Below are positions 6,803 to 63,156 of a DNA stretch of 64,000 bases, one piece after another. Positions within the stretch are counted from its first letter, which is position 1, and every line of letters starts with the position of its first letter. The position numbers were made by a program, and so were the translations under genes. The stretch is from Candidatus Omnitrophota bacterium (GTDB taxonomy: Bacteria > Omnitrophota > Gorgyraeia > 2-01-FULL-45-10), in contig JAQUSB010000001.1 in NCBI GenBank assembly GCA_028715345.1, positions 40,047-104,046 of the forward strand, read 5' to 3'. The notes under the pieces were generated by a model, which searched no databases, was not told the DNA's origin, and worked only from the letters and a program-made list of their open reading frames with translations.

Positions 6803-8203
6803 CTATCCCTTTCTGTCCTTTTCCAGGACCTTAATGAACGCTCTGACTACTTCAGGATCGAACTGGCTGCCGCTATTTGCGCTCAGCTGCGCTATGGCTT
6901 CGGCCTTATCCATGGTTTTCTGGTAACCTCTGTCCGATATCATCGCGTCATATGAATCCGCTACGGACACGATAGCGGCAAGAAGGCTTATCTTGCCGCC
7001 AGACAAGCCATCCGGGTAACCTTTACCGTCATACCGCTCATGGTGTTCTTTTATCACAGAGAGAAGCTCCGGATCGAGGCAGACCGGTTTCAATATCTCA
7101 GCGCCTATCGCCGGATGCTTCCGTATGGCGTGCCAGTCCTCGTCGCTCAAGACTTTTTTGCTCAATATCATTTCGTGTATGCCCAGCTTACCTATGTCGT
7201 GCAGGAGCGCGGCCTCTCGTAACAGTTCTATCCTCTCTTTCGACACCCCCATGCTCTCGGCGATCTTCACGGCGTACCCGGCCACTCTGTCCGAATGCCC
7301 TTTTGTGGACGGGTCTCTCGCTTCAAGGATGCGGATGAGCGATTGGACGGCGCGGTAAAAGTAGTCGAGGAGCGCTTCCCGGGCCTTGAACAGGTTCGCG
7401 CCCATTTTGTTAAAAGAATCCGCAAGCTCCGCTATCTCGTCCGAACCTTTGGCCGGCACTTTATACTTAAGATCGCCGGAAGATATGTGACGTGTCCCTT
7501 CGACCAGTTTTTTTACCGGAGAAACGACCCGCCCGGCGATGATAAACCCGAATGTGGCCGACAGTAATATCCCCAGTATCAGGACAAAAAAGGCGCGGCG
7601 CTCGGTCTCCTTTTCGGCAGCGTAAACATCGTCGGCCGCCATATCTATGCCTAAAACCGCTATGACATTGCCGTCACCATCGCGTATCGGGGAATAGCCG
7701 GAAAGAAAAACGCCCCACTTATCCGATATCATCTTCCTGTCGGCCGCGGGGGCGTCGAATGCCTTCAGCAGTTCCGGATAAGGCCGCGCGTCATATTTCT
7801 CGCCGGGGACCGCGGGCTCGGCGCCCGCAGCATAAGAACCCGGGTGAATATCTATCACGAATTGTAATATGCCGGGCGTCTCCGTTTTTTTGAGTATGTA
7901 CATATAGGCGAGCGAGGGCATGACCGATCTCATTTTAAGCAGTTCGGTTTCTATGACCCTGTATTGCGGGCTTGCCTGAGCGCTTCTGTCCATAGGTATA
8001 TCTGCCAGGGGGCGGGGATCGATCGTCATCGCTACGGCCCGGGCGACCGTCATCAATTTATCCCTGAGCTGGTTAAATTGGGTTTTGAGGGAATACTCGT
8101 ATATAAGGAAGTTGCTCAATACTGCCGAGAAACAGACCAGCAGTATAAGAGCTGCCGTAACTTTCGCGCGGAAACTTCTGAAAAATATAAAACGTTTATT
8201 CAT
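6803..8203 (-). CDS. membrane-anchored sensor HD-GYP phosphodiesterase (periplasmic sensor + HAMP + HD-GYP)
   Basis: 466 aa with N-terminal TM helix, periplasmic domain, second TM, HAMP region and HD-GYP catalytic domain (HSDRVAGYA...LLHDIGK...HHERYDGKGYP). Confidence 0.8.
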   Translation of the reverse strand: MNKRFIFFRSFRAKVTAALILLVCFSAVLSNFLIYEYSLKTQFNQLRDKLMTVARAVAMTIDPRPLADIPMDRSAQASPQYRVIETELLKMRSVMPSLAYMYILKKTETPGILQFVIDIHPGSYAAGAEPAVPGEKYDARPYPELLKAFDAPAADRKMISDKWGVFLSGYSPIRDGDGNVIAVLGIDMAADDVYAAEKETERRAFFVLILGILLSATFGFIIAGRVVSPVKKLVEGTRHISSGDLKYKVPAKGSDEIAELADSFNKMGANLFKAREALLDYFYRAVQSLIRILEARDPSTKGHSDRVAGYAVKIAESMGVSKERIELLREAALLHDIGKLGIHEMILSKKVLSDEDWHAIRKHPAIGAEILKPVCLDPELLSVIKEHHERYDGKGYPDGLSGGKISLLAAIVSVADSYDAMISDRGYQKTMDKAEAIAQLSANSGSQFDPEVVRAFIKVLEKDRKG

Positions 8204-8672
8204 TCAGATCCAGTTTTTCCAGTATTTTTTTATTGAATTCCTGCGCGTCGGGCGCGCCTTCGGCGGGTGCCCACGGCGCGAAGTGTTTGTCGGCCTTTTC
8301 GTCATACGGCCCGTCTTTAACCTCATAAAGGACAGAGCCGGGTTTCAGCGTAATAAAGGTATGCCATTTGCCCGGCGGTATCTCGACGGCTCTTACGCCG
8401 TGCGCAGGATCGAGGACTGCATGGTCTATGACGTTCCCATTGTCGTCAAATTCCACGACCACGACGCTGCCGTTCAGGATAATGAAGACTTCGTTCTTGT
8501 CGGGATTTTCGTGTTTGTGAGGTTGTATATATGTCCCGGGCTCGGCGGCGTTCAGGAGGCGCTGTACCACGTCATCGTAATTTTTGTGGAAATTGTAGTT
8601 CGTCCTCTTCCTGGGCGAGGCCTTCGCTTTGTCCGAAACCGTTCTTATAAGCTCTTCGGTCAATTTTATCAT
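8196..8672 (-). CDS. cupin-fold protein (WbuC-like)
   Basis: ATG at 8672 (MIKLTEEL...) lies just downstream of the tRNA. The longer track ORF reads through the tRNA exon and is rejected. Cupin His motif PHKHENPDKNEVFIILNG. Confidence 0.5.
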   Translation of the reverse strand: MIKLTEELIRTVSDKAKASPRKRTNYNFHKNYDDVVQRLLNAAEPGTYIQPHKHENPDKNEVFIILNGSVVVVEFDDNGNVIDHAVLDPAHGVRAVEIPPGKWHTFITLKPGSVLYEVKDGPYDEKADKHFAPWAPAEGAPDAQEFNKKILEKLDLNE

Positions 8673-8726
8673 ACAGGTCAAATTTGGCGTCCCTGGCCTG
8701 ATTCGAACAGGCGACCCTCTGCTTAG

Positions 8727-9208
8727 CTTACCGCACTGGATTACTCCAGCCAATGTTACGTTGCGGTCTGGACTATGTCTTCGCCATTTCAGGCGTGCAG
8801 CGTATAGTCTCTGAGGACTCCCATCCAAGCTTCAGATAATCATCGGCCCATTTTACGTGAAGGTTTTGATTATTTATGGTTTTCTCAAAACGTATTGCCT
8901 TCAGCGATGCATATTTAACTTGCAATTTAAATACATCGCCTGTTTTTGAGATAGCCACTACATCATACGGCTGATGCTCGGATAACGGAATGCATGGGAC
9001 ATAGCCCTTAACGGCTAAATCACCTATAACCTTTGCTACTCCGATATCTGCTTTTTCCTTCGTATGATGCAACCTTCACCTCCTTTCATTGGACCGAATT
9101 ACCTGTAGCTTTTATGGTTGCCTGCAAATTGCCCTGTATATGACAGGGGTTCCTTGCATACAGCCGCATCCATTCTATGCGTTTTATTCCGCATAGAAGC
9201 TCCCATTG
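8727..9208 (-). ncRNA. group I self-splicing intron inserted after U34 of tRNA-Arg(UCU)
   Basis: Intron follows an exonic U and ends in G. A 4-bp P1 (CUU|C with GGAG) has U.G at the splice site. P2 hairpin UCUAUGCG/CGCAUAGA. P7/R-like CAGAGACUAUA and S-like AAGACAUAGUCC elements, plus a P8 hairpin CGCC-UGAAAU-GGCG. Confidence 0.7.
8773..9072 (-). CDS. intron-encoded protein, putative PD-(D/E)XK-type homing endonuclease
   Basis: 99 codons with TTG start preceded by an in-frame TGA and a strong SD (AAAGGAGGTGAAGG). It lies inside the intron and its 3' end overlaps P7/P8. Motifs E...PYDVVAIS...FKLQVKY fit a D...(E/Q)xK nuclease core. Confidence 0.5.
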   Translation of the reverse strand: MHHTKEKADIGVAKVIGDLAVKGYVPCIPLSEHQPYDVVAISKTGDVFKLQVKYASLKAIRFEKTINNQNLHVKWADDYLKLGWESSETIRCTPEMAKT

Positions 9209-9263: not shown

Positions 9264-9340
9264 TGGTCGGGGCGGACAGATTCGAACTGTCGACTTCTTG
9301 GTCCCAAACCAAGCGCGCTAGCCAGCTGCGCTACGCCCCG
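9264..9340 (-). tRNA. tRNA-Pro (anticodon UGG)
   Basis: Reverse complement CGGGGCGTAGCGCAGCTGGCTAGCGCGCTTGGTTTGGGACCAAGAAGTCGACAGTTCGAATCTGTCCGCCCCGACCA. Anticodon loop TTTGGGA with G37 and CCA encoded. Confidence 0.85.
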
Positions 9341-9938: not shown

Positions 9939-10673
9939 TTAAATAATACCCTTCAACACTTTCTTCTGCGCCGTGACCAGCTCGTCTATGCCTTTTTTTG
10001 CCAGCGTGATGAGCTTATTCATCTCTTCTTTTTTGAACGGCTCTTTTTCGGCGGTGCCCTGTATCTCCACAAAGCGGCCGTCGCCGGTCATAATGATATT
10101 CATGTCGACTTCCGCGGTAGAATCTTCGCTGTAATCGAGATCGAGCGCCGGTTTGCCGTCCAGAATACCTACGCTGATGGCAGCCACGTAATCCGAGACG
10201 GGGATATTTTCGATCAATCCCTCCTCGCGCATCTTTTCGAGCGCCAACACTGCGGAAACGAAACTTCCCGTGATACTTGCGCACCTGGTCCCGCCGTCGG
10301 CCTGGATCACGTCGCAGTCTATCCAGATCGTACGCTCTCCTATCTTCGCCATATCGGCGACCGACCGCATCGAGCGGCCTATCAAGCGCTGTATCTCCAT
10401 CGTCCTGCCGCCCAGCTTACCCCTGGACGCTTCCCTCTGCACTCTCGTCTTGCACGATCGGGGTATCATCCCGTACTCGGCCGTTATCCAGCCGGTGCCC
10501 TTGCCTTTCAGAAAAGGCGGGACGGTGTTTTCGATCGTCGCGGTCGTTATCACTTTCGTATCGCCGATCTCTATAAGGCAGGATCCTTCCGCGTACTTTA
10601 TGTAGTTCTTCGTTATCTTTAATTTGCGTAATTCGTCAGACGCTCTTCCGCTTTGCCTTGTCATATATGTCAT
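9939..10673 (-). CDS. rph: ribonuclease PH
   Basis: 244 aa with [33 protein letters not shown] and [18 protein letters not shown] motifs. Confidence 0.85.
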
Positions 10674-14166: not shown

Positions 14167-14964
14167 TTATACGGCCCTCTTTACGCATTTGATACGGCGT
14201 TTCAGGAATTTCTCGCCTATGCGGACGAATCTGTTGGGCTCATCGCTGACGAAGAATATGTGCCTGCCGCTTCTTTTCGAACCGTTAAGCAACCCGCCCG
14301 CGTCCAGTATGCGGCGCGCTTCTTTGGCTGTCTCCCTGGCCGAATCGACCAGCATAACCCCGGGCCCCATGACTTTCTTAAGAACTTCTTTCAAAATAGG
14401 ATAATGGGTGCAGCCCATGACAAGGGTATCGACTTTTTTTTGTTTCAGAGGCTTAAGATAAATCTGAGTGATCGTCTTCGTAACTTCCTTATCCGACCAC
14501 CCCTCCTCGACCAGCGGCACAAATAACGGGCAGGCCTGCGTAAATACTTTATACCGGGGACTTATCTTCTTCACGGCCTTCTCGTAAGCTCCCGAGGAGA
14601 TAGTCGCATGAGTGCCGACTACGCCTATCCGGTTATTGCGTGTAGCGCTCACCGCCTGGCGCGCGCCCGGCTCTATCACGCCCATGACGGGGACCCTGAA
14701 GCATCTCTTCAAAAAATCGAGGCTGAGCGAAGACGCGGTATTGCACGCGACCACCACAAGCTTCACGTTATGTTCCATCAGGAATTCCACGTTCTCGACG
14801 GAAAACTTCGTCACGGTCTCTTTTGACTTGGTGCCGTAGGGCACCCTGGCGGTATCGCCGAAATATACCAGGTCTTCGTTAGGTAAAATATCCTGCATCT
14901 CGCCTACGACCGTAAGCCCGCCCACACCCGAATCGAATATGCCTATAGGCCTCGGATCGCTCAT
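14167..14964 (-). CDS. murI: glutamate racemase
   Basis: 265 aa with IGIFDSGVGGLTV and VVACNTAS motifs. Confidence 0.85.
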   Translation of the reverse strand: MSDPRPIGIFDSGVGGLTVVGEMQDILPNEDLVYFGDTARVPYGTKSKETVTKFSVENVEFLMEHNVKLVVVACNTASSLSLDFLKRCFRVPVMGVIEPGARQAVSATRNNRIGVVGTHATISSGAYEKAVKKISPRYKVFTQACPLFVPLVEEGWSDKEVTKTITQIYLKPLKQKKVDTLVMGCTHYPILKEVLKKVMGPGVMLVDSARETAKEARRILDAGGLLNGSKRSGRHIFFVSDEPNRFVRIGEKFLKRRIKCVKRAV

Positions 14965-16771: not shown

Positions 16772-17187
16772 GGGGGTGAAAGGTTTCGACCCAGATGAGC
16801 AAAGTATAAGCAGCATGTAGAGGTTGCTAGGAGGCCTCTTTAAACACCTGGCAAAAAATCAAATGCTGAAAACGTAAAAGTTCCAGCAACGGTGAACGAA
16901 CTCCTAAGCACCATGCAAGTGGTGCCGGGGCCAGTTCTACCGGTAGCGTTACCTTTATAAGGTAACCCGCCAACCGGTCCTTCTCCTGCGGGGGCCGGAT
17001 TGACGACACACAGCAGGATGGCCCGGATCTTTTAGCCTTTGGAGGCCCGGGCGAGACTGACAAAGGATACCTCTTTGAAATTCCGCCTGTTGAAGTTCAC
17101 TGGGGGAAATCAAAGATCAGGCTAAACATGTAGCGGCTTATTCTTTGACGTTCGGGGACGCGGGTTCAATTCCCGCCACCTCCACCA
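16772..17187 (+). ncRNA. ssrA: tmRNA (transfer-messenger RNA, ssrA)
   Basis: 5' end is GGGGGUGAAAGGUUUCGAC. 3' end is GGACGCGGGUUCAAUUCCCGCCACCUCCACCA, a T-arm with acceptor 3' strand and encoded CCA. The acceptor pairs GGGGGUG with CACCUCC and carries the G3.U identity pair. It lies immediately downstream of smpB. Confidence 0.85.
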
Positions 17188-25585: not shown

Positions 25586-26560
25586 TTATAGATATCTATT
25601 ATTTTTTAAATAGCCGGTATAATCTTTTACCGCCTCTTCGAAAGCGGTAAATTTTTTCCTGTATCCCGTTTTCCTTAATTTATCCATCTTTGCCTGGGTG
25701 AAATACTGGTAATTCGGCCTGATAGGTTCTGGCATATCGATATATTTTATGTCGGGCGGCTTCCCCAGCGCGGAGAACATGGCTCCGGCAAGGTCATTCC
25801 AGCTGCGCGCCGCCCCCGAGCCCAGATTGAATATGCCTGAACGCTCCGGATGCTCCAGGAAATAGAATAAAACATCTATCACGTCTTTTACATATATAAA
25901 ATCCCTTTTCTGCCCTCCATCCTTGTAATCATACCGGTATGATTTAAACAGTTCTATACGCCCATCTCGGCTCGCTTGCGTAAATTTTTTGCATATAACG
26001 CTCATCATTTCGCCTTTATGATATTCGTTAGGGCCGAAGACATTGAAAAATTTGATGCCTGTCGCTACTTTATCTAACTTATTGTTCAATACCCATAGAT
26101 CGAATAGTTGTTTTGAATATCCGTACATATTCAATGGACGTAGCATGCGGGTAGATCTATCGGAGTCATCATATCCGAGCTCGCCATCGCCATATGTAGC
26201 GGCCGATGAAGCATAAATAAACTTTACCTTATTAGCCTCAGCCCACCTGGCAAGAGTTTTGGAATATTCGTAGTTATTTTTTATGTAGTATGCGGCATCG
26301 GTAAGTACGGTAGAACTGCAGGCGCCTAAATGGACAATGGTTGAAACATTGATATTAACGCTTCCTTCAAGCAACTCTAAAAAATCGTCTTTCTGTATAT
26401 ATTCCAGGAATCTTTTTCCGGTGAGGTTTCGCCATTTTTCGGATGTGCCGAGGTTGTCGACCACTATGACATTATCGATGCCTTCGCGGTTAAGTTTCCA
26501 CAGAAAACAGCTTCCGATAAAACCGGCTCCGCCCGTCAAAATTATTTTCTTTTTACCCAT
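25586..26560 (-). CDS. hldD: ADP-L-glycero-D-manno-heptose 6-epimerase
   Basis: ATG at 26560 (MGKKKIILTGGAGFIGS). Rossmann motif plus YASSAATYG and FFNVFGPNEYHKG motifs. Confidence 0.8.
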   Translation of the reverse strand: MGKKKIILTGGAGFIGSCFLWKLNREGIDNVIVVDNLGTSEKWRNLTGKRFLEYIQKDDFLELLEGSVNINVSTIVHLGACSSTVLTDAAYYIKNNYEYSKTLARWAEANKVKFIYASSAATYGDGELGYDDSDRSTRMLRPLNMYGYSKQLFDLWVLNNKLDKVATGIKFFNVFGPNEYHKGEMMSVICKKFTQASRDGRIELFKSYRYDYKDGGQKRDFIYVKDVIDVLFYFLEHPERSGIFNLGSGAARSWNDLAGAMFSALGKPPDIKYIDMPEPIRPNYQYFTQAKMDKLRKTGYRKKFTAFEEAVKDYTGYLKNNRYL

Positions 26561-43601: not shown

Positions 43602-44472
43602 GCGTCATTTCTTCGGGAAGCTCTTCCCTGAATTCCCGCGATATTTTTATATGCCGCGGGTCGGTCTTTTCTTTCCTCGCAAGACATATAAGCGTAACCA
43701 CTATATCCCTGTCGAACCTTTTCCTGTCGGACTCGAATAACAGATAATCCAGCGACGCCCTGAGCGAAAACGATTTGCCCCTGTACGGCCTTTTCGTCAT
43801 CAGCGCATCGAGGACGTCGACCACGCTTATAAGCTGGGAATATTTATCTATTTTTTTTATCCCTTTCGGATAACCCGAACCGTCAAGGCGCTCGTGATGA
43901 TCGAGTCCGGCGATAGAACATATGACCCTGTCTTTCTTCAAATAATAATTCAGTAGAAGGTAGCCCATCACCGGGTGGGTCTCCATTATCATCCTCTCTT
44001 CCGATGTCAGCTTCCCGGGCTTGTTCAATATGGATATAGGTATGCGCGTCTTGCCGATATCGTGCGTAAATCCGCAATGGGTGATCGTATCTTTGTCGAA
44101 CTTGCCCGGTTTATAAGCGAGGGAAAGCCTTATCGTCAAAGCCGCGACTATGAGGACGTGATGATAGGTGTAAGGCAGGTTCTGTTTCATGGTGCTCAGT
44201 TCGAAGATGAGATCGTTCTCGATCGCGAGAGCGCCGGCTATATCGCATACCTGTTTTTTGACGGCGGGCGGCTTCAATATGTTCGCGTATTTCGGATCGT
44301 AAAAGACTTTGTCGAAGTCCGCGAACAATTCCGTATTCTTTAAAGGTACCCGCGCCTGCTTATGCGCCTCGCCCATCTTCCGTATCTTTTTTATGACTGC
44401 CGGCGTTATCTCCGTATTCTTTTCTACCAGAAGATCGCCGTAAATGGTATACAGGTCGTTCAAAAGGCGCAT
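43585..44472 (-). CDS. stand-alone HD-GYP domain phosphodiesterase
   Basis: 295 aa with HHVLIV...THDIGK...HHERLDGSGYP motifs. Confidence 0.75.
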   Translation of the reverse strand: MRLLNDLYTIYGDLLVEKNTEITPAVIKKIRKMGEAHKQARVPLKNTELFADFDKVFYDPKYANILKPPAVKKQVCDIAGALAIENDLIFELSTMKQNLPYTYHHVLIVAALTIRLSLAYKPGKFDKDTITHCGFTHDIGKTRIPISILNKPGKLTSEERMIMETHPVMGYLLLNYYLKKDRVICSIAGLDHHERLDGSGYPKGIKKIDKYSQLISVVDVLDALMTKRPYRGKSFSLRASLDYLLFESDRKRFDRDIVVTLICLARKEKTDPRHIKISREFREELPEEMTHEKYV

Positions 44473-51912: not shown

Positions 51913-53583
51913 TTATATGCTTCCCCGCCCTTCTATTATATCCATCATCTTCCGGGCGTTAGGAAAATTCGGCTTGATCGATAATGCCTTTTTAAGATTT
52001 TCCCCGGCCATTGCGTAATTTCCCTGCGATAGGTATATACTTGCGATATTGCTGTATGCCTCCGCGTAATCGGGCCGAAGTTCGAGGGCTTTTTTATATT
52101 CTGCCATGGCGTCCTTTTCCCGGCCCATGGCGCTATAGACATTGCCGAAATTAAGACGGAGCCGGGCATTGTTCGGCGAATACTTTATGGTATTTTTAAA
52201 GAACGTTACTCCGTCCTTCCAGTCCTTATTCCGCTCGAACGTCAGGATACCGAAGAAAAGGAATAAGCCCGCCAATAAAAAGACGACCGCCGGTTTGTAA
52301 AAAAAACGCGCGCAGGCAAGGCCTATCATCATATATATGCCTATAGCCGGAAGATAAAGCCAGTGCTCGGATATGAAACTGTTTATAGGGACTATGTTAG
52401 AGACCGGCAGAAGGCCGATAAAAAACCATAGGGATGCGAAAAAAACTTTCCGCGATCTTTTGCGGGCTATATAGACCATGACGGCTATTACCGACATCGC
52501 GGCTAAAGCTATGAATACTTCCGGGTTAGCGAAAGATGTCGCCACCTTTACCTGCCGTTCCATGTGCAGCCCGAACGGCAGCGCCAAAAGGAACAGGTAG
52601 ACGCATACGGCCTTAAATGTGGTGAGCATCCTTATATATAGATTGAATTTACCCATTATCGTGGACGGGGCCGCCGCGGAGAAATCGAGGATCGTCTTCC
52701 TCATAATGACATAGGCTAAAAAGACCACTAAATAAGGAATGACCAATGAATAGAGCTTCGCGCGGTCCTTTTGGCCGGAGAAAACGAATATATACAGAAT
52801 AAAAAATAAAGGCAGTATCATCCCTATCTCTTTCGAGAGCACAGAGGCGGCGTAAAATAAGATAGACAGCGCGTACGGGACATAGCGGATCCCTTTATTT
52901 TCCGTCGATGCTTCGGCCGCGCGCAGGAAAAGGATGAACGAGATGAGGAAGAAGAGCAGATAAAGAGGGTCCGCCCTCCCGGCAACGTATGTGACGGCTT
53001 CCGTATTTATGGGATGGATGCCGAACAGAGAAGCCGTCACGAAAGCGACAAGCCAGTTCTTGAAGATCTTCAACGAAAGTATGTATAAAAATACCGCGCA
53101 TAGTGCGTGCAATAATATATTCGTCAGGTGAAAACCCAGCGGCAGGCTCCCCCACAGGAAACGGTCGATCATGTATGATAGTTCCTGGATGGGCCGGTAA
53201 AAATTATTTATATTACCGCTTGTAGCGGCGAGGTATGTTTTGAATATGCGCGCCGCATTATTGAAACTATTTATGGCGGTATTGTCCCTTATCAGGAACT
53301 CGTCGTCCCAAATGAAATCATTATTCAGGGCGCTCGAGTAAGCCGCAAGGACAAGCACGGCTATTACGATGACCGATAAGACGTGCACCCATTTTTTAAT
53401 GACCGGCGCCTTCTCATCCTCCTCCTGCCGCAGGCGCTGCCCGGAGGGTTTCCCTTCCCGCAGGCCCATTTTACGGAGATACTTCGAGACGCTCCTCTCA
53501 CGCAAACCCAATTCATCGGCGATTTGCCTGGCGGTTTTAGTCCCTATGTTCTTCGCTATATATTCTTCCTGTGACTGTTTCAT
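51913..53583 (-). CDS. fusion protein: N-terminal HTH (sigma-70 region-4-like) + GT-C-like polytopic membrane domain + C-terminal TPR repeats
   Basis: 556 aa. N-terminus TARQIADELGLRERSVSKYLRKMG is an HTH. A block of ~11 TM helices carries NDFIWDDEFLI and FYRPI motifs (TMTC/DUF1736-like). Three C-terminal TPR units follow. Confidence 0.5.
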   Translation of the reverse strand: MKQSQEEYIAKNIGTKTARQIADELGLRERSVSKYLRKMGLREGKPSGQRLRQEEDEKAPVIKKWVHVLSVIVIAVLVLAAYSSALNNDFIWDDEFLIRDNTAINSFNNAARIFKTYLAATSGNINNFYRPIQELSYMIDRFLWGSLPLGFHLTNILLHALCAVFLYILSLKIFKNWLVAFVTASLFGIHPINTEAVTYVAGRADPLYLLFFLISFILFLRAAEASTENKGIRYVPYALSILFYAASVLSKEIGMILPLFFILYIFVFSGQKDRAKLYSLVIPYLVVFLAYVIMRKTILDFSAAAPSTIMGKFNLYIRMLTTFKAVCVYLFLLALPFGLHMERQVKVATSFANPEVFIALAAMSVIAVMVYIARKRSRKVFFASLWFFIGLLPVSNIVPINSFISEHWLYLPAIGIYMMIGLACARFFYKPAVVFLLAGLFLFFGILTFERNKDWKDGVTFFKNTIKYSPNNARLRLNFGNVYSAMGREKDAMAEYKKALELRPDYAEAYSNIASIYLSQGNYAMAGENLKKALSIKPNFPNARKMMDIIEGRGSI

Positions 53584-53601
53584 TATTTAAAACCTTACGG
53601 G

Positions 53602-54189
53602 CTATCGTCTCGGCGGCTGGGGCGGCGGTGAAGGCGGCCGCGGCGGCTGGGGCGGCGGCGTCTGAGGCTGAGCCGGAGGCATCTGGCGCTGCATAGCCGA
53701 AACCCTCTGGGCCTCTTCTACGACTTCCATTTGCCGCGCCACCTCTTTAGCCTGGTATGCATTTATCTGGATGTACACCTTATCCAAAAGCCCTTTCAGC
53801 GCGGCATCGTCGAGGTCTTCTATATTCACTTCTTCCGCCCCGCGGGGATATGTATATCTATCTTCTCCGTCCGAGCCTTTCTTTTTCTTAAGCTCCGGGA
53901 TGCCCTTCAGGACCTCCTCGTTATTTCCGGTCTCCTCTTTTATGATCTTTAACATATCCTCCCTCGCCATAGCAGGCGCCGATCCGTTAAAAGGCGGCAG
54001 GGATGCTTTCTGCCCGGGGACGGAGGAAACTGCCGGAGAAGGCCGCGCCGGAATATTTTTTCCGGTAAATTTTTTCCACATTCTCGGGATCAAACCTTCA
54101 CCGGCCTGCGCCGACGCTGTAAGAGGCGTCAGGATGATCACCAGAGATATTATCAAAATTTTTGATAGATCGTTCACGATTTTACGCAT
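53602..54189 (-). CDS. secreted protein with C-terminal Pro-rich tail
   Basis: 195 aa with a signal peptide. C-terminus reads PPAQPQTPPPQPPRPPSPPPQPPRR. Confidence 0.4.
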   Translation of the reverse strand: MRKIVNDLSKILIISLVIILTPLTASAQAGEGLIPRMWKKFTGKNIPARPSPAVSSVPGQKASLPPFNGSAPAMAREDMLKIIKEETGNNEEVLKGIPELKKKKGSDGEDRYTYPRGAEEVNIEDLDDAALKGLLDKVYIQINAYQAKEVARQMEVVEEAQRVSAMQRQMPPAQPQTPPPQPPRPPSPPPQPPRR

Positions 54190-54195
54190 ATGCTT

Positions 54196-54864
54196 TTATC
54201 CGGGATATCCTACAGTCTGTGCCAGAATTATCTTCTGGCCGGAGCGCAGCTTCATAGCTTTGGCCAATGCCGGCCTGTCCACCAAACCGCGCACTACCGT
54301 AGCAAGGCCGGCCGAGGCGCAGTAAAGATACACGTTCTGGCTTACGAAACCGGTATCTGTGGCCACGTAGAAATCCGCGTCCGCCGCGGCCATCTTACCC
54401 ATCTTCGAAACGTCCGCCACAAATATGAGATTTACAGGAGCGTCCTTTACGAAAGGCTGCGCGCCGCTGGCGGCCCTGAGGTCATCGTTCGATACCTTGA
54501 CCAGCGTGTTGGTTTTGGCATCATACAGATACAGGCCGCTTGCCATTGCCGCGTAAATATCTATCTCCTGCATATTTCTTGCCGAAGGCGCCGTCCTTAA
54601 ACCGGTAGCCGGCCGGCTGATGCCGTTAGCGGCCCAGAGCATATCCGACATCACCTGTAAGGGAATATCTTTGGAGCTGAAAGATCTCTGCGACATCCTC
54701 TCTTTCAGCGCCTGCATCAAAGGTTTCCCGCCTTGCGTCTCGGGATCGGGCAGTTTTATCGATCCCGCGCTCTCCGCCGATACGGCCGCAGAATAGGCCG
54801 CCAAGATTGCCAGCGTGAAACAAGCCGTTAAAATTTTTCTCACCTGCATATCATCCTCCTGCAT
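54196..54864 (-). CDS. secreted nitroreductase-superfamily (SagB-type dehydrogenase-like) flavoprotein
   Basis: 222 aa with a Sec signal peptide. Nitroreductase-fold motifs ERMSQRSFS, MLWAANGISRP and TAPSARNMQEIDIY are present. Confidence 0.55.
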   Translation of the reverse strand: MQEDDMQVRKILTACFTLAILAAYSAAVSAESAGSIKLPDPETQGGKPLMQALKERMSQRSFSSKDIPLQVMSDMLWAANGISRPATGLRTAPSARNMQEIDIYAAMASGLYLYDAKTNTLVKVSNDDLRAASGAQPFVKDAPVNLIFVADVSKMGKMAAADADFYVATDTGFVSQNVYLYCASAGLATVVRGLVDRPALAKAMKLRSGQKIILAQTVGYPG

Positions 54865-55580
54865 TTACCGGATATGTCGGCGATAGCGCCGACGGGACAA
54901 AAATACCTGCACCAGAATTTCGGTATAAAGAACGCCGCCGATAAGATGGCCGCCGCGATAAAAACGGCCGCCCAGGCCCAGGCATACCACCCGTTCCCGA
55001 AATATTTTACCCACGCCGACGAGGTAACGGTCAGAAAATAGACGGCGGCAACAGCAATAAGTATAACATAGGAAGACACGGATAACCAGGCCGCGGGCTT
55101 TAAATGCTTCTTCGATATAGCTACCTGCGCCTCCTGGAACGAGCCTAAAGGACAAAGGCGCGCGCACCAGAATTTGCCGGACAGGTTCAGCCCTACGAAC
55201 GCGCCGAAGAGAAAAGTCCTCGATATCCCCCATGGACATTTATCCGGGCAGGCCCTGCAGAATACATACGGCACTTTAAAATAGCAGCGGAATACCGGCA
55301 GCAGGATCACCGGGAGAAATATGAGGCCGCCGATAAATTTCAGCCAGAAGTACGGCAGTAATTTTTGGTTTACCCATTTTATTATAAGAAGGGCGAACGA
55401 CGCGGCGCAAATTATTTTGATAAATAACGAGAACGGCGGCCGCCAGAAAAAATAAAGCAGGCGCAGGCTGCTCTCCGAATAGGCCATACTTGCGAAGAAT
55501 ATACCTATGAGGGCGAAGAGCCAGAAGAAAACGGAATTTTTTATACCGCTTATGATATTGCCTTTGCTCAAGGTCGTCAT
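54840..55580 (-). CDS. integral-membrane polyferredoxin-like 4Fe-4S-binding protein (NapH/COG0348-like)
   Basis: 246 aa with six TM helices. Repeated Cys motifs FCRACPDKCPWG, WCARLCPLGS and WCRYFCPVGA lie in cytoplasmic loops. Confidence 0.55.
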   Translation of the reverse strand: MTTLSKGNIISGIKNSVFFWLFALIGIFFASMAYSESSLRLLYFFWRPPFSLFIKIICAASFALLIIKWVNQKLLPYFWLKFIGGLIFLPVILLPVFRCYFKVPYVFCRACPDKCPWGISRTFLFGAFVGLNLSGKFWCARLCPLGSFQEAQVAISKKHLKPAAWLSVSSYVILIAVAAVYFLTVTSSAWVKYFGNGWYAWAWAAVFIAAAILSAAFFIPKFWCRYFCPVGAIADISGKCRRMICR

Positions 55581-55581
55581 C

Positions 55582-57846
55582 TTATTTATAGATTATATCA
55601 CGACTGCGCAAAAATATTAAAACAACCGCGAGGTTAAGGAACGCAACGGCTAAACAGCTCTGGACCAGGCCCAGTACGGGGATCATAAATACACCCGTCA
55701 GGGCCGCGCCCAGGCAGGAGCCTAACAGATCGAGCCCGTAAGTCAGCCCTGCCGAAGAGCCGGCAGCCGCCTCTTTTTTGCCGGCCAGGTATATCCTGTT
55801 GGACAGGGCAAATAGCGCCCCTCCCTGCAACCCTGCTAATAAGGACAGCGCGGGAAAGAAAATGGCGGCGCCGAACCAATGGGCGTAGCCGGTCTTGGCG
55901 GCCGAGATCAGGTTGACCGCGGCCGGGAATATGAATGCATAGACTGCGATGCTTAATTGAACGACGAGAAATTTTATCTTCGATCTCCCGGGGCCGGCAT
56001 CGGCCCTCGATTCATACCATCCGGCCAGGGCGAGCCCGAGCATGAAAAACGTAAATAACATGCCGAGCTTGAAATACAGATACCCGTATATGACCTGGAA
56101 CGAGAATAAGAGCATTATCTGTATCGCAGCCTGGCTGAATCCCATCACGAAAACGCCGGCTAACGCGGGCTTGGCGGAATTCCCGGTATTCTTTAAGCCC
56201 AATAGCATAATAAAAATGCCGGCCAATGCAAATACCGACCAGATGATGCCGCCGGAAGCCGTTCTTAAAACATTCGTCATCAGCGAATCGCGGAATTGCG
56301 ATGCCCAATAGATGATGGCGTAATAATACGACGACGGCCTGAAGTCGAAATTGATCCTCGCTCCGGATCTTTTAAGCGCGTCTTCCGTGTAGCGGACCTT
56401 GTCGGCAGACATCCTGGCAAACAGATAATCCTCCCGCATATATTGCAGATCGAGCTGCCGCTCCTCCGCTCTCCGCATCAGCAATTTGTAGTCATAAGTA
56501 AGCCCTCCGGGGCTTTCGGATGCCAGGAAATACGCGGTATTGCCGGGGATGACTTTCACGTCCGCAAATTCCTTCTGCAGGGTCGCGCGGACCGAACTTA
56601 GGTATTCGGACATATCCGGATCTATATAGCTTTCGGAACCGCTCAGGCCGAAACTTATTATGCCCCCGTCCGTTAAAACATTTTTTGCTTCGCGGAAAAA
56701 GTCGCGGGTGTAAAACCGGTTCAACTGCGCCGTATACGGGTCTCCGAGGTCTATTATGATGCAGTCATATTTATTTCCGGTCGTCTTGATAAAATAGCGG
56801 CCGTCCATATTTTTGATCGAGACCCTGCCGTCGTCGAGGGCTTTCGTGTATCCGCGCGCGAGGAAGCTGCGCGCAAGCCTGACCAGTTCCGGGTCGAGCT
56901 CGACGTAATCGATATGCCTGACCGGATATTTCAATATTTCATCGACGAGGCCGCCTATCCCCCCGCCTATCAGAAGTATGTTCTTCGGGTCTTTATGTTC
57001 CAAAAGGCAGAAATGGACCGCTTCTTCGGAGATCTTTTTATCCGGCACACTGCAAAACCTTATCCCGTTATTAATGAAAGATATCTGCCCGTCCCTTTTT
57101 AACGTGACCAGGTTGGCGTAAACGGAGTTCCTCGCGTCCAGGACTTCGTAGCCCTTCCACTGCTTTTTGAATGAAAATATCTCCGCGTTTTTCCATCCCT
57201 GCAACATCCATACCAGGCCCAGCGAAATTATGATCACGGCCGCGCCGGCTCGCGCCATTCTTTTTTGCGGCGCCTCGGCAAAGAAGAAAGCCGCGGCCGC
57301 ATTGAGCAGGCTGAGCACGGACATTATTTCGAAGGAATTAAAATATCTCAACAGGACGAGGCTTACGATGCCACCGCCCAGGATAGACCCGAACGCTTCC
57401 ATGGCATAAACCCTGCCGATGCCCGACGCTTTATCTTTTATTTCGTATATCCGGCACGCCAGTATGAACATGAAACCCATGACGGCGCATAACGGGATCA
57501 GGACAGCGATACTTGAAAATGCCAGGATATGAAAAGGAAGGATCTGCCCGGGGTTGATACCTAAGATCGGCCTTATCAGCCTGATGAGCAATATCCCGAA
57601 CGGCAGGAATATACTCAGGAATATCTGCAGCAGCACGAAAACGAGGTTCTTCCGTTTTATTCTGTCGGCAAGCTTTCTCAATAATAACGCGCCGACGGCG
57701 CCCGACAGCATCCAGCCGGCCAGTATTATACCGACGGAAAGCTCGTCCCCGGAAAAGACGATAAGGAATTCCCGGATGAAGACTATCTGGGAAGCCATCG
57801 CGGTGGCTCCGAGGCATATTATGGAGAAGAGTAAAGGCTTTTTCAT
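55582..57846 (-). CDS. spermidine/spermine synthase-like domain flanked by N- and C-terminal multi-helix membrane domains
   Basis: 754 aa. N-terminal ~8 TM helices, then a central aminopropyltransferase-like SAM-binding fold (LLIGGGIGGL...DYVELDPELV...IIIDLGDP), then ~8 C-terminal TM helices. Confidence 0.65.
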   Translation of the reverse strand: MKKPLLFSIICLGATAMASQIVFIREFLIVFSGDELSVGIILAGWMLSGAVGALLLRKLADRIKRKNLVFVLLQIFLSIFLPFGILLIRLIRPILGINPGQILPFHILAFSSIAVLIPLCAVMGFMFILACRIYEIKDKASGIGRVYAMEAFGSILGGGIVSLVLLRYFNSFEIMSVLSLLNAAAAFFFAEAPQKRMARAGAAVIIISLGLVWMLQGWKNAEIFSFKKQWKGYEVLDARNSVYANLVTLKRDGQISFINNGIRFCSVPDKKISEEAVHFCLLEHKDPKNILLIGGGIGGLVDEILKYPVRHIDYVELDPELVRLARSFLARGYTKALDDGRVSIKNMDGRYFIKTTGNKYDCIIIDLGDPYTAQLNRFYTRDFFREAKNVLTDGGIISFGLSGSESYIDPDMSEYLSSVRATLQKEFADVKVIPGNTAYFLASESPGGLTYDYKLLMRRAEERQLDLQYMREDYLFARMSADKVRYTEDALKRSGARINFDFRPSSYYYAIIYWASQFRDSLMTNVLRTASGGIIWSVFALAGIFIMLLGLKNTGNSAKPALAGVFVMGFSQAAIQIMLLFSFQVIYGYLYFKLGMLFTFFMLGLALAGWYESRADAGPGRSKIKFLVVQLSIAVYAFIFPAAVNLISAAKTGYAHWFGAAIFFPALSLLAGLQGGALFALSNRIYLAGKKEAAAGSSAGLTYGLDLLGSCLGAALTGVFMIPVLGLVQSCLAVAFLNLAVVLIFLRSRDIIYK

Positions 57847-57851
57847 TGTTT

Positions 57852-58502
57852 TTAGCCCAATATGAAAATTACGCCGAACAGTATCAGAACTGCCGCGCAG
57901 ATCGACCTGAATATCATGTTAGCTGCCGGAGACATGGCAAATTTTTTCGGGAATACATTTAATACGCCCGTTATCCCGGCGGCAAGGATCAAACCTGAGA
58001 AAAAAGTGCCCAACCCGAACGCGAGACCGTAAACGGCGCCCTGCAGGAATGTTTTAGATACGAGCGCGATCTCCGTCAAGAGCCCTATTAAAGGAGGGCA
58101 CGGGCTCACTCCTACCATAAAACCGAAGACGAAGGAGCCGCCGCCATGCAAAACCCGGTGGACGCGCCCCGAACAGGCTTCTCCCATCTTTTGCCTGTAG
58201 AAAAAGATATATATCCCGAAGAGGATACTTATAACGCCCGCGGCGGGTCTAAAATAAAAAGAGATGTTCGAGCCGGTAAATTGGCGCAATATTACGCCGG
58301 ACAATCCCGCTAAAAACCCGAGCGCCGTGTAGGCGAGGACTCTCCCGGATAAAAATACGGCGATCACAAAAAGTACTTTTTTATAGCCCTCTTTTATGCC
58401 GGCGCCGAGGGCAAGAGTTATCGGAAGGCAGTAAAGAAGGCACGGCCCGCTGATCCCGAGGATAAAACCTATGGAAAAAACCTGTAATGCAGGAATGAGC
58501 AT
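57852..58502 (-). CDS. ccdA: CcdA/DsbD-family thiol-disulfide transmembrane electron transporter
   Basis: 216 aa with six TM helices. Conserved Cys in TM1 (ISGPCLLYCLP) and TM4 (GVSPCPPLIG). Confidence 0.6.
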   Translation of the reverse strand: MLIPALQVFSIGFILGISGPCLLYCLPITLALGAGIKEGYKKVLFVIAVFLSGRVLAYTALGFLAGLSGVILRQFTGSNISFYFRPAAGVISILFGIYIFFYRQKMGEACSGRVHRVLHGGGSFVFGFMVGVSPCPPLIGLLTEIALVSKTFLQGAVYGLAFGLGTFFSGLILAAGITGVLNVFPKKFAMSPAANMIFRSICAAVLILFGVIFILG

Positions 58503-59613
58503 CTACTTTTCCCAGCGCCCCGCGACCGGATAACCGCAATAAGCGCATTTGCCGTCTTTTATATTTACTTCCCTTACCCTGTAACCTGTGCGGGAGACTA
58601 AAAGTTTCCCGCAATTCGGGCAATACGTATTCTCGTACACGTTGACAAAAGGGACGTTGCCGATATAGACATACTTTAACCCGACGCTCTTTGCGATCCT
58701 GTATGCCTCTTCCAATTTCTCGATCGGAGTGGGCGGAAGATTGGCCAATTTGAACGCAGGCGTAAAACGGCTGAAATGCAGAGGCACGTCATCGCCGACA
58801 TTTTCCTTTATCCATACGCACATTTTCCGTATCTCTTCGGGGCTGTCGTTCTGCCCGGGGATGACTAAGTTCGTTATCTCGAGCCAGACGCCTTCTTTTT
58901 TTTACCGTCTTGATCGTATCGAGGACCGGCTGCAGTTCGGCGAACGCCCCCATCTTCCGGTAAAAAGCTTCATTGAAACCCTTCAGGTCGATATTCACCG
59001 CGTCCATATATTTGAGCAGCTCTTTAAGCGGCGCTTCATTTATGTAACCGCATGAATGCATCGTATTCTTTATCCCCTTCTGGCGGGCGAGCTTAGCGAT
59101 ATCGAGCATATACTCATAAAAAACGGTCGGCTCGGTGTAAGTGTACGCGATGTATTTACAATCGTTCTTTACGGCAGCTTCGACGATCTCTTCGGGCGGG
59201 GTGAAACGGCTCTTCACTTCGTCGGGCTTCGCCTGCGAGATCTGCCAGTTCTGGCAAAAGAGGCAGCGCATATTGCACCCCGCCGCCGCTATAGAAAACG
59301 CCTTTTCCCCCGGAGCGACGTGAAAGAACGGCTTCTTCTCTATAGGGTCGATGTGCAGAGCTACCGGCTTGCCGTATCCCAAAGCGTAAAGAGTGCCGCC
59401 CCTGTTTTCGCGCGCCGTGCAGAAACCGCGCGCGCCGTCGCGGATAACGCATTTGCGCGGGCATAGTTTGCACTGTATGACGGTGTCCTTGAATTTTTCC
59501 CAGTAACTCGCGACATGAGGCCCATCCTGTTTCCCTGCCGGGGCAGCCGGCGCGACGGCAAAAGTAACCGCGCATAGCGCCGCGACGAATATGAGAGCAG
59601 GTTTCGTTCTCAT
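58503..59613 (-). pseudogene. AmmeMemoRadiSam-type radical SAM enzyme (PflA/COG1180 family) disrupted by a +1 frameshift in an A8 tract
   Basis: Two overlapping ORFs, 58789..59613 and 58503..58823, together cover one protein. N-terminal part carries YWEKF...CKLCPRKCVIRDGARGFC...GCNMRCLFCQNWQIS. C-terminal part carries HFSRFTP...PPTP...CPNCG...CAYCGYPVAGRW. The frame changes at plus-strand T8 (58896-58903); reading A7 restores ...TVKKEGVWLEITNLVIPGQND.... Confidence 0.65.
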
Positions 59614-60212
59614 TACTTTACGAAGAACATCAGGACGGGGGCGATTAGGAGGGCATATAAACTTATCACGGGATATATGAATGACATCAGAGCGGCAAAT
59701 AAAGACACGAGCGGAAAGACTAAAAGTTTCTTCTTTTCTTTATCGATATAGCGACGCGTGACCGTTTCGCTTATCAGCCTGTAGCCTTTTGCCGCGTATG
59801 CCCAGTTAAAATAATTGAATACGCCCACTACGAACATATTCGAGGCGAGGAACGCTTCTGCGACCGGATCCGTCGGGAACTTGTTGACCAGAGACGAGGA
59901 GAACGGGATGAGCGCTATGAACATCAGGGTCAAGACGCTTATCCATAAATGGGCGCGGTCGGTGTGTTGTATAAAATGGGCCTGGTTATGGTGCACGAAC
60001 CAGAGGTAACCCAGCGTAATGAAGACTATCATGTAAACGATGATGTCCTGGAAACAGCCGGTGAGGAACTGCTCGATGCTTACGGTCCTGAATACGCTGA
60101 TATCATGCGGGACTTTTATATCCAGCACCAATATGGTCATGACGATGGCAAATATGCCGTCCGTCAGGGCGCTTATCCTATGCGGTAAAACTTTATTCTG
60201 CGTTACGTTCAT
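59613..60212 (-). CDS. DUF1211/TMEM175-family membrane protein
   Basis: 199 aa. N-terminal RISALTDGIFAIVMTILVLDIKVP is the TMEM175 signature helix. The stop overlaps the radical SAM start as TAATG. Confidence 0.6.
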   Translation of the reverse strand: MNVTQNKVLPHRISALTDGIFAIVMTILVLDIKVPHDISVFRTVSIEQFLTGCFQDIIVYMIVFITLGYLWFVHHNQAHFIQHTDRAHLWISVLTLMFIALIPFSSSLVNKFPTDPVAEAFLASNMFVVGVFNYFNWAYAAKGYRLISETVTRRYIDKEKKKLLVFPLVSLFAALMSFIYPVISLYALLIAPVLMFFVK

Positions 60213-60244
60213 AGTTAGTTATAGTATATCATATTTTTGCCGGA

Positions 60245-61870
60245 TTATTGCCCGGCGCCTTCCGCGTATTTTTCGTATCCGGCCAGCGCCATGCCGAGCG
60301 AGGCCTTGGCCCAGTTCAGCGGGACTATGGGCGACGGCAAATAATATTTTTGCCCGTCCACGACCACCGTATTTATGCTCTCCGGCAGCAACCAAGGCTG
60401 GGCGGTGTTGCCGTCCGCTGTAATAGAACCGCCCGTGATCTGGCCGAGCGCGCGCTTAATGTGGACCGCAGCTAAGTATATATCCTGTTCGCGGAGCTTC
60501 GGGTCTTTTGTTATCCCGGCGAGATGCAGCCGCGCCATTGCCAGCAGGCTGTCGAAAAACCACTGCGCTTCGGTATCGGGGATAAGCCCGCCCAGCCGGC
60601 CCAGGAAAGCGTCTTTCGAAGACGTGTCCGCCGTAAGGGACGCGCTGTCTTTGCCGGAAGGCTTTATCCAGAAATTCCCGCCCTGGTAGCTGTCGTTGTT
60701 ATACCGCAGGACGCCCGCCGGACGTTTGAGCGTTTCCACTATAAGGAGCGCTTTTCTCATCTCTTCTTCGCTCAACCCCTCGAGCGGCGAAGGCTGTATC
60801 AAAGTTATTAGCGCTGCGTCTGCCCGACGAAAATGTATGTCTTCCGGCTTGTAATCCGGCGACTCTCCCCCGAGGAACAGCTGGTATCTGACGGTCTCCA
60901 GGCCTTTATTTACAAGAAACGTTAAATTGCCGTCCGACCAGGATCTCTTTATATTTTCGTTCTCTTTTTTGAGCATAGGAAAAAACTTTTTGCGCAAAGC
61001 GTCCGCCGGCTTCTCTTTATTTTTATACAAAAGATCGCACCAGGCTTCGAGAGAGCGCGCGGCGAGGCCTATACTGGAGGTATTTTTACGGGTTATCTCT
61101 TCCCATGAGCCTGCGTCCTCATAATCGTAGAAAGATATGGCTGAAAGGAACGACGGGTATAAGCTCAAGGCTTTGAATCTTTTCTCGGTCAGGTCGTCAG
61201 GCGTCAGGAGGCCTTTTGTGAATGCCTCTGCCAAAGCCGTAAAAAATATCCCGTGAGCGTCGATCTGCCTGTGATTCCAATGCTGCGGCTTTCCGTCTAT
61301 TATGACATCGTCCAGGGCGGGCGAACTGCCGTCGAACCGTATGTGAGGCACCGCCATTTCGTCCTGCGCGATCGCGGGATCCGCTATCACACCGGAAAAA
61401 CGTTTATACTGCGCGTCCGTAGAATAGTAATCCCATAATGCCAGGATAAGGCGCCGCGCGTCATTCCGGCGGGCCGGGTCTTCGAGAAGCGAATAATATA
61501 CCCATACATTGTCCCTGACCCATATGGCGTCGTAGTGCGTCGCGTCTTTTTCTTTCTCGGCGCTGCGCGAGGCGGCAGGAGCGAAACCCCTGTCATTAAG
61601 TTTTATGTAAAGGCTGTCCTTCAATGCCCGGCGTATATCGGATAAAGCTTTCTTGTCTATTTTGGCCTTTACCCAATCCGCGACTTTGTCGTTGAACACG
61701 GTTATGAATTCACCTTCGGGCGAAAGGACGGTCCGGCAGGGCTTTGCTGAAAGGAGATATTGTTTTACGTTATCGTATCCGGCGGTGCCCCGGTTTTCCT
61801 GGGCGAAGGCGGCGCCGGAGGCCAGAAGTAAACCTATAGTCAGACTTATTACGCGTTTATTCGCCGTCAT
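60245..61870 (-). CDS. secreted glycoside hydrolase family 15 (glucoamylase-like) protein
   Basis: 541 aa with a signal peptide. IWVRDNVW matches the W.RD motif and GSWEE the catalytic acid region of the GH15 (alpha/alpha)6 barrel. Confidence 0.65.
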
Positions 61871-62325
61871 TTAAGCAGATCGCCGCGGCCGACTTCGTAA
61901 TCGCCGATCTGGCGCTCGTATTCTTCCGTCATCATGCTCGAAGATATTATGAAATCTGCCGACGCGCGATTGCAGGCCGCCGGAATATTGTAAACGACCG
62001 CTATTCGTAAAAGCGCTTTAACGTCCACGTCATGAGGCTGGGGCTGCATGGGATCCCAGAAAAATATAAGGAAATCTATCTCGGAATTCGCTATCTTCGC
62101 GCCGACCTGCTGGTCTCCGCCCAGAGGGCCGCTTTTCAATTTATTGATCTTAAGCCCAAGTTCGCGCTCAAGTATGGCCCCCGTCGTCCCGGTAGCGATA
62201 AGTTCGTGTTTTGCCAGGGAACCTTTATTGAACTTTGCCCACTCGAGCAGGTCCTTCTTCTCATTATCATGCGCTATAAGAGCGATACGTTTTTTCACCG
62301 CCATCTTAATGGTCTTTGTCTGCAT
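61867..62325 (-). CDS. mgsA: methylglyoxal synthase
   Basis: 152 aa with [24 protein letters not shown] and FFWDP motifs. Confidence 0.85.
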
Positions 62326-62445
62326 CCGTCCTCCTTATCTTATTATTTGAAGTATGCCACAACCAACCGAAAAATACAAATTTATCGAGCCTTTGCGCGG
62401 GGTTTTGTATATAATCATATATAGGATAAAAGAAAGGATGCGGTT

Positions 62446-63156
62446 ATGCATAATTTTATCGGGGAATTATTCGGAACGATGGTATTGGTATTGCTCGGGG
62501 ACGGGGTGGTCGCGAATGTCCTCCTGAAAAAAAGTAAAGGCGAGAATTCCGGCTGGATGGTCATCGCCAGCGGGTGGGGCCTCGGCGTGGCTATAGCCGT
62601 TTACGTCGCCGGCTGGGTCAGCGGAGCGCACATCAACCCTGCCGTTACGCTGGGGTTCCTGGTGATCGGTAAAATAGCGCTGAAAGATGTGCCGTATTAT
62701 ATCGCGGGCCAATTGATAGGCGCTTTTCTGGGCGCGGTGATCGTATGGCTGGCGTACCTGCCGCACTGGAAAGTGACCGAAGATCCCGACAAGAAACTTT
62801 CGGTTTTCTGCACTATGCCCGCTGTGCGCAATTACAAAGCGAACCTTCTCTGCGAGATCATAGGCACCGCCATGCTCCTTATGGGCATACTCGGGATATT
62901 CAACGTCCACAATTCGATCGGCAGCGGCGTCGGGCCGTATCTGGTCGGCATACTCATATTCAGTATAGGGCTTTCCATAGGCGGCCCTACGGGTTACGCC
63001 ATAAACCCCGCGCGAGATCTTATGCCGCGCATCGCCCACGCGGTCCTCCCTATCCCCGGGAAACGCGATCCCGATTGGGCATATTCATGGGTACCTGTCG
63101 TCGGGCCGCTAATAGGCAGCGTCCTGGGCGCAGGACTTTATCACATTATATTTTGA
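62446..63156 (+). CDS. glpF: aquaglyceroporin / glycerol uptake facilitator (MIP family)
   Basis: 236 aa with the two MIP signature boxes SGAHINPAVT and NPARD. Confidence 0.85.
   Translation: MHNFIGELFGTMVLVLLGDGVVANVLLKKSKGENSGWMVIASGWGLGVAIAVYVAGWVSGAHINPAVTLGFLVIGKIALKDVPYYIAGQLIGAFLGAVIVWLAYLPHWKVTEDPDKKLSVFCTMPAVRNYKANLLCEIIGTAMLLMGILGIFNVHNSIGSGVGPYLVGILIFSIGLSIGGPTGYAINPARDLMPRIAHAVLPIPGKRDPDWAYSWVPVVGPLIGSVLGAGLYHIIF

Follow-up and report, generated by a model that had tools for sequence, protein, structure and literature searches.

The window, by which we mean the whole 64-kb stretch of DNA that was analysed, contains a packed run of seven genes on the minus strand, read from 60212 to 53602 with gaps or overlaps of only -25 to +6 nt. 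It starts with a TMEM175-family gene (59613-60212), whose stop codon overlaps the start of the second gene by 1 nt (TAATG). This second gene encodes a radical SAM enzyme (rSAM) that is split in two by a frameshift, and it is the subject of this report. Directly after its stop codon follows the ATG (TAG ATG) of a DsbD_2-family membrane protein (57852-58502), which NCBI names 'sulfite exporter TauE/SafE family protein'. The run then continues with a fused MFS/spermidine-synthase-like membrane protein (MFS/SpdSyn; 55582-57846, 754 aa, intact), a Fer4_5 membrane protein (54840-55580), a nitroreductase of 222 aa (54196-54864), and a Pro-rich secreted protein of 195 aa (53602-54189). The last two (together 53602-54864, minus strand) both start with signal-peptide-like sequences. 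Judged from its predicted products (secreted-type proteins, DsbD_2, and the Fer4_5/NapH-like protein), the packed run suggests an extracytoplasmic redox system.

The break lies in a homopolymer at 58896-58903, which is TTTTTTTT (T8) on the plus strand and A8 on the minus strand, i.e., the gene strand. It consists of the codons for Lys238 and Lys239 plus one supernumerary A, the site of a 1-nt insertion, and the minus strand here reads ...GAT ACG ATC AAG ACG GTA AAA AAA AGA AGG CGT CTG.... The upstream open reading frame (ORF; 58789-59613, minus) encodes 274 aa, namely 239 authentic residues followed by a 35-residue out-of-frame tail (RRRLARDNELSHPRAERQ... / RRRLARDNELSHPRAERQPRRDTENVRMDKGKCRR) that ends at the TGA at 58791-58789. 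The true continuation of the gene (58503-58895, minus) lies in the +1 frame, which is open from the tract to the TAG at 58505-58503 and provides 130 stop-free codons for residues 240-369. The downstream ORF as called (58503-58823, minus) begins at an internal ATG (Met264) and encodes 106 aa; it overlaps the upstream ORF by 35 nt on the same strand, in a different frame. Residues 240-263 are thus coded by neither called product. In the NCBI annotation the upstream product is MDD5427708.1, an 'AmmeMemoRadiSam system radical SAM enzyme' of 274 aa, and the downstream one is MDD5427707.1 (PHI58_00525), a 'hypothetical protein' of 106 aa. The latter is identical to the 106-aa ORF and shares a 118,497-nt Candidatus Omnitrophica MAG contig with MDD5427708.1. 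When one A is deleted from the A8 run in the computed sequence, the reading becomes ...TVKKEGVWLEITNLVIPGQNDSPEEIRKMCVWIKENVG... and a single 369-aa product results, with the junction peptide TVKKEGVWLEITNLVIPGQNDSPEEIR in the full-length product versus TVKKRRRLAR in the truncated one.

The repaired 369-aa sequence is a clear member of TIGR04337 (NCBIfam, AmmeMemoRadiSam system radical SAM enzyme). In a profile search it scored 393.8 bits (E = 5.6e-118) against a curated cutoff of 220 bits, in one uninterrupted stretch that pairs residues 36-368 with profile positions 2-334 of 349. Pfam Radical_SAM (PF04055) is present as well, with 95.4 bits, and the PflA, NrdG, and MoaA models score far under their own cutoffs on the repaired protein. 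The radical SAM CX3CX2C cluster motif is C113-NMR-C117-LF-C120. On re-check, the coordinates, motifs, and translations of the first-pass annotation all proved correct, the motifs being CKLCPRKC, GCNMRCLFCQNW, HFSRF, PPTP, CPNCG, and CAYCG. The authentic upstream part holds an export-type leader, CxxCPxxC, and CX3CX2C (C113/C117/C120). The repaired protein can be aligned over its core with the structural reference, pyruvate formate-lyase activating enzyme (PflAE; 3C8F/3CB8). The alignment with PDB 3C8F pairs query residues 109-266 with residues 25-185, and because it runs across the site, the frameshift falls inside the radical SAM catalytic core fold. There are also differences. The window protein has an extra 35-residue N-terminal export-type leader outside the profile, and its neighbours are DsbD_2 and the fused MFS/spermidine synthase rather than AMMECR1 and Memo, the partners of the family in a three-part system; neither turned up in a scan of the packed run and of the annotated surroundings of the gene in three relatives. 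Finally, the coding sequence is interrupted in the window genome, where the A8 run shifts the frame after Lys239 and leads into the premature TGA.

Among database proteins, the best 120 homologues are 338-384 aa long, 66-79% identical, and mainly from Omnitrophota. None of them has a gap at the site, where they follow the pattern K-[KEQRSAN]-x-G-V-W-L-E within the consensus ...L-K-T-[IV]-K-x-x-G-V-W-L-E-I-T-N-L.... In an alignment of 32 sequences the corrected-frame window sequence keeps every invariant column downstream of the tract (G241, W243, L244, E245, T247, N255, D256, H279, R282, PPTP, and C331/C334/C356/C359). At the DNA level we compared 84 related loci, 80 of them from GTDB species representatives and the others the closest metagenomic contigs. 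The first-pass annotation had held that likewise interrupted orthologues would speak against its reading of the site. We found none, neither among the 84 loci (in all of which the best tblastn segment covers approximately the whole gene) nor among the 120 proteins. Its central claim, that one PflA-like, AmmeMemoRadiSam-type gene is split by an extra A and that A7 restores a family-conform sequence, is borne out by the profile match, the homologue alignment, and a near-identical relative with A7 (see below).

The same comparison bears on the idea that the gene is naturally split and its two halves act as separate subunits. NCBI does annotate two proteins, and the internal ATG at Met264 offers a start for the second one. 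On the other hand, no homologue is divided at this point, the upstream product ends in 35 junk residues, and the radical SAM core fold itself is what the break cuts through. That two subunits could rescue the enzyme is implausible because residues 240-263, with the invariant G241, W243, L244, E245, T247, N255, and D256, are in neither called ORF. We find a natural split hardly credible.

The tract itself is variable among relatives. The motif was located in 26 of the 80 loci, and here the two Lys/x codons hold A-runs with lengths anywhere between 1 and 8 nt. Relatives code these positions with AAG, GAA, CAG, and other codons; the tract is a by-product of two Lys codons. One orthologue (L024, around position 8700) carries an in-frame A8 (ATC AAA AAA AAT) and another (L043) an A7 (ATG AAA AAA ATG). 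Because both carry such runs in frame at the same codons, the two-codon position is a recurrent natural hotspot for exactly such indels. Since no homologue or locus is interrupted and the A-runs range from 1 to 8 nt, the frameshift is lineage-specific and not a conserved recoding event. DNA patterns with the exact flanks of the tract had no matches in GTDB genome contigs or JGI metagenome contigs and gave no further alleles. A protein search with the out-of-frame tail as query, designed to find further A8 alleles, retrieved no protein except that of the window itself; apparently, the index leaves out partial products from the ends of contigs.

How exceptional the split is within the window can be seen from a survey of its homopolymers, in which all A/T runs from 6 nt upwards and all G/C runs from 5 nt upwards across the 64 kb were altered by +1 or -1 and checked for ORFs that become fused. 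There are five A/T runs of 8 nt in the window and some 30 of 7 nt, and among all runs tested only the target rejoins two halves of one gene by a 1-nt change. The four other 8-nt runs (5757-5764, 14434-14441, 43851-43858, and 52299-52306) lie inside open ORFs, the last of them inside a Pfam-supported TPR/BatA protein. At a coding density of 93%, the window shows no further gene that is obviously broken. The split at the A8 run is not chance, and because no other qualifying run splits a gene, the assembly is not generally homopolymer-noisy. Three further fusion candidates (9993-9999, 25602-25607, and 59637-59641) were rejected, as each is a junction of distinct adjacent genes: rph (RNase PH)/rdgB-like, hypA/epimerase, and TMEM175/rSAM. 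An overlapping pair at 8196-8828 and 8773-9072 was likewise rejected as a split gene; its members belong to different families, and the overlap stems from an over-extended TTG start.

Two RNA features elsewhere in the window deserve a short mention. The PD-(D/E)XK gene of the overlapping pair (8773-9072) covers only profile positions 1-80 of 138 and is flanked by a tRNA-like 3' fragment at 8687-8725 (minus; GGGTCGCCTGTTCGAATCAGGCCAGGGACGCCA), which ARAGORN did not call. This fragment lies about 580 nt from tRNA-Pro(TGG) (9264-9340), with which it has an 81%-identical T-arm segment in common, and fragment and gene may be what is left of an element that had inserted at a tRNA. A tmRNA at 16772-17187 (plus strand, Rfam 172 bits) has an ARAGORN-predicted tag of 31 residues (AENVKVPATVNELLSTMQVVPGPVLPVALPL), far above the usual length of about 10 residues and without an ALAA end.

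Near-identical sequences give direct access to the history of the A8 run. Look-ups of the exact 274-aa ORF and DsbD_2 sequences gave no match in the contig index. Through a cluster mate of the neighbouring DsbD_2 protein we reached the ENA contig ERZ27247363 k141_890882 (L084), which is 96% identical to the window at the nucleotide level over 2.1 kb. It reads GACGGT-AAAAAAA-GAAGG, that is A7, and has one open frame of 280 codons through the site to the stop. Because so close a relative has A7 and an open frame, A7 is the ancestral functional state and A8 a derived insertion. Apart from the tract, the window and this relative differ by a single indel, which changes the 5-6-nt spacer that separates DsbD_2 from MFS/SpdSyn by 1 nt (window 57847-57851 versus L084 1495-1500; TAAA-AACAATG versus TAAACAACAATG). 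The A8 run, in turn, recurs in an independent Logan assembly of SRR22315506 (L083), a 964-nt contig that aligns to window positions 58182-59143 and on which the 106-aa product is also called; a literature search for this run found no paper. Its single difference from the window is a synonymous GAG/GAA SNP about 190 nt downstream of the tract. Since the Logan contig keeps GAA, as in the A7 relative, while the window has GAG, A8 sits on two slightly different haplotypes.

The Logan contig excludes an assembler artefact because it has A8 too; as it and the MAG were possibly built from the same reads, strictly only assembler error is excluded. A read-level sequencing or consensus error is a separate matter. 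It would mean that the organism has A7 and an intact gene, the extra A coming from homopolymer miscalling or slippage during library PCR and ending up in both assemblies, and indeed both A8 observations may derive from the reads of one project. The A7 of the nearest relative fits such an error, and so does the lone character of the homopolymer frameshift, since Antonov et al. 2013 (PMC3711429) expected that most BLASTp-validated singletons go back to errors in sequencing. Against it, A8 came out of two different assemblers and sits on haplotypes distinguished by a SNP, and some 35 other A/T runs of 7-8 nt in the window are free of frame breaks, which would be unusual for homopolymer-noisy data. 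We regard a read error as possible, though less likely than a genuine null allele.

Selection along the gene is informative on the age of the lesion. We estimated dN/dS by the Nei-Gojobori method for the window versus the A7 relative. For the 147 rSAM codons upstream of the tract it is 0.064 (4.5 non-synonymous and 16.5 synonymous changes), and for the 130 codons downstream, in the corrected frame, it is 0.070 (5 and 17). The DsbD_2 gene gives 0.11 (19.8 and 47.2) and the first 200 codons of the MFS/spermidine synthase gene give 0.14 (12 and 25). Neither relaxed constraint nor further stops appear downstream of the tract in the comparison with L084, and this absence of decay is compatible only with a very young lesion or an artefact. 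With a dS of about 0.2 between the window and L084 lineages, the lesion must be much more recent than their separation, or it is absent from the DNA. The perfectly preserved downstream frame, with a dN/dS as upstream, and the intact downstream genes are thus also what a read error would leave. For a genuine null allele, a disruption against an intact ancestral state is seen in the comparison with the close relative; relaxed selection or secondary lesions downstream are not.

The first-pass annotation had left three options for the split: a sequencing or assembly artefact, a genuine pseudogene, and expression by slippage or phase variation. In the last of these, A8 is real and full-length enzyme is still made, either through transcriptional realignment or a +1 slip on AAA-A, or through a DNA-level A7/A8 ON/OFF toggle. 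Runs of A are slippery for DNA polymerase, RNA polymerase, and ribosomes alike, and A7 (ON) and A8 (OFF) alleles do occur in lineages 4% apart. Moreover, slippage on 8 As is apparently productive in some insertion sequence (IS) elements of Deinococcus and Nostoc, and productive slippage on an A8 run has also been reported for human apoB (PMC1088944). However, Baranov et al. 2005 (PMC1088944) report that in a large share of bacterial genomes selection against slippage-prone runs begins to show at 9 nt, whereas the present run has 8.

The direction of the shift matters here. To restore the frame, the mRNA needs one A fewer or two As more, or the ribosome has to slip by +1. According to Traverse and Ochman 2017 (PMC5574713), homopolymer slippage mainly inserts single bases, homopolymers are seldom the starting point of deletions, and in none of the frameshifted genes did the transcripts restore the frame. 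The favoured direction gives A9 and is therefore of no help, as rescue needs -1 or +2. A +1 ribosomal slip could proceed by tRNA-Lys moving from AAA onto AA-A, with perfect re-pairing and GAA as the next codon. Sequence elements that would promote it are missing from the context: AGA, the 0-frame codon in the A site, is not a rare one (6.7 per 1000 and 13% of those for Arg, counted over 9,660 window codons), so that a 'hungry codon' model was rejected; no Shine-Dalgarno (SD)-like element is visible just upstream of the tract; and a 141-nt stretch around the tract is no more stably folded than its shuffled versions (z = +0.76), which led us to reject a stimulatory RNA structure. We also rejected a -1 ribosomal frameshift on A_AAA_AAA, since the resulting frame (AAG AAG GCG TCT GGC TCG AGA TAA) meets TAA after 9 codons.

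Conservation points the same way. For programmed recoding, both the shift and the slippery motif are expected to be conserved (Antonov et al. 2013, PMC3711429), and neither is kept among the orthologues, in which the frameshift is found in none of the 84 loci or 120 proteins, the A-run ranges from 1 to 8 nt, and one A8 is in frame. A contingency locus would have a long tract conserved in relatives, and this is lacking as well; nor does the gene belong to a surface or restriction-modification class. With known programmed transcriptional slippage sites (Thermus thermophilus dnaX A9, Shigella mxiE T9, and IS elements with A8-A9; PMC1088944) the site has in common a sense-strand A-run that joins two overlapping frames. 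In those systems, however, the tract and the two-ORF layout are conserved among homologues and the run is usually at least 9 nt long (PMC1088944). The window tract, in contrast, has 8 nt and needs a change in the disfavoured direction (-1 or +2), and every homologue either lacks it or reads through it in frame. Nothing indicates a selected recoding mechanism. Background leaky rescue by slippage of RNA polymerase or the ribosome would likely amount to a few percent at most, as at any A8. All in all, we consider functional slippage or phase variation highly unlikely. More specifically, the chance that the A7/A8 tract serves the apparently exported rSAM/DsbD_2/MFS-spermidine-synthase module of Omnitrophota as a low-frequency ON/OFF switch or a leaky, slippage-dependent throttle seems slighter still. 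If it did, part of the population, or a few percent of the transcripts, would still yield full-length enzyme.

A better match is provided by the frameshift pseudogenes in poly-A/T runs, the singleton 'fs-genes' of the GeneTack survey (PMC3711429). As in these, one base is gained or lost in an A/T run that is 7 nt or longer, the two halves belong to a single family, orthologues do not have the change, and no other damage to the gene is seen. We see no essential difference; in the present case the ancestral A7 allele and a second A8 assembly were recovered in addition, which dates the event as very recent.

In short, the three options can now be ranked. The assembly artefact falls away with the Logan contig; programmed slippage or phase variation finds no footing, given whole orthologues, an unconserved tract, and no stimulators; and a genuine null allele is the most likely. 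We therefore favour, with some reserve, a genuine and very recent null allele in the lineage of this Omnitrophota MAG, and infer that A8 is a true allele of its DNA. The event is very recent and not programmed. Single-A additions of this kind are usually caused by replication slippage. Here, one A would have been added to the A7 run of the Lys-Lys codons, changing GTA AAA AAA GAA into GTA AAA AAA AGA, and the frame would shift after Lys239 of the 369-aa exported-type AmmeMemoRadiSam-family radical SAM enzyme. The ribosome would then read 35 junk codons and stop 286 nt ahead of the translationally coupled DsbD_2 gene. The truncated product retains the leader, the N-terminal CxxCPxxC...C motif, and the CX3CX2C cluster site. 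As it would lack the C-terminal third, and with this the Cys4 region and the strands that complete the radical SAM core, we expect it to be inactive.

The consequences may extend beyond the enzyme itself. The first-pass annotation had described the locus as a tightly coupled seven-gene operon. Its tight spacing agrees with that description, but only the rSAM-DsbD_2-MFS/spermidine synthase part is conserved in relatives. DsbD_2 lies directly downstream of rSAM in 17 loci, all from close Omnitrophota relatives, and an MFS/SpdSyn gene is found within 8 kb of rSAM in 47 of the 84 loci, which come from several phyla. One relative has all three genes joined by 4-nt overlaps. This conserved, translationally coupled module (window 55582-59613) is seen in L001-L011, L022, L081, L082, and L084. 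The Fer4_5 gene recurs in one relative only (L001), and the TMEM175, nitroreductase, and Pro-rich protein genes are not conserved neighbours. A promoter and terminator scan of 53000-62600 gave matches at chance level, from which the operon boundaries cannot be defined. In the frameshifted state the 286 nt ahead of the DsbD_2 start are untranslated, and a loss of translational coupling or polarity on the downstream genes is therefore possible, so that expression of the coupled genes may fall. It would, critically speaking, be somewhat surprising to find the first gene of a conserved, coupled three-gene module lost in the dominant allele, and this counts against a null allele.

The N-terminal leader is a feature of the subfamily at large. 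In the window it spans 59509-59613 (minus; residues 1-35) and lies outside the TIGR04337 profile; in the relatives (L001-L082) we surveyed the sequence upstream of CxxCPxxC. Omnitrophota members, in about 32 loci and in 113 of the 120 top proteins, have MKK or MRK, a hydrophobic core, and an AxA-like site. Some 30 more distant members (Desulfobacterota, Acidobacteriota, Aminicenantes, and others) carry a clear twin-arginine motif, e.g., RRDFLK, and members from Thermodesulfovibrionales have no leader. An exported radical SAM enzyme, as predicted from these leaders, would be unusual; none is described in the titles and abstracts on radical SAM and twin-arginine that we searched.

For annotation, the outcome is that MDD5427708.1 and MDD5427707.1 are halves of one gene, for which the entry should either be corrected or name a frameshifted pseudogene. 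Should the allele be real, the population has just lost the first enzyme of the conserved rSAM-DsbD_2-MFS/spermidine-synthase module, a hint that this module is dispensable under the sampled conditions. The A7-to-A8 insertion as such is an ordinary, already known kind of event and adds nothing to what is known of recoding. Of greater biological interest is the family of the affected gene, radical SAM proteins with Sec- or Tat-type leaders, and this holds independently of the frameshift.
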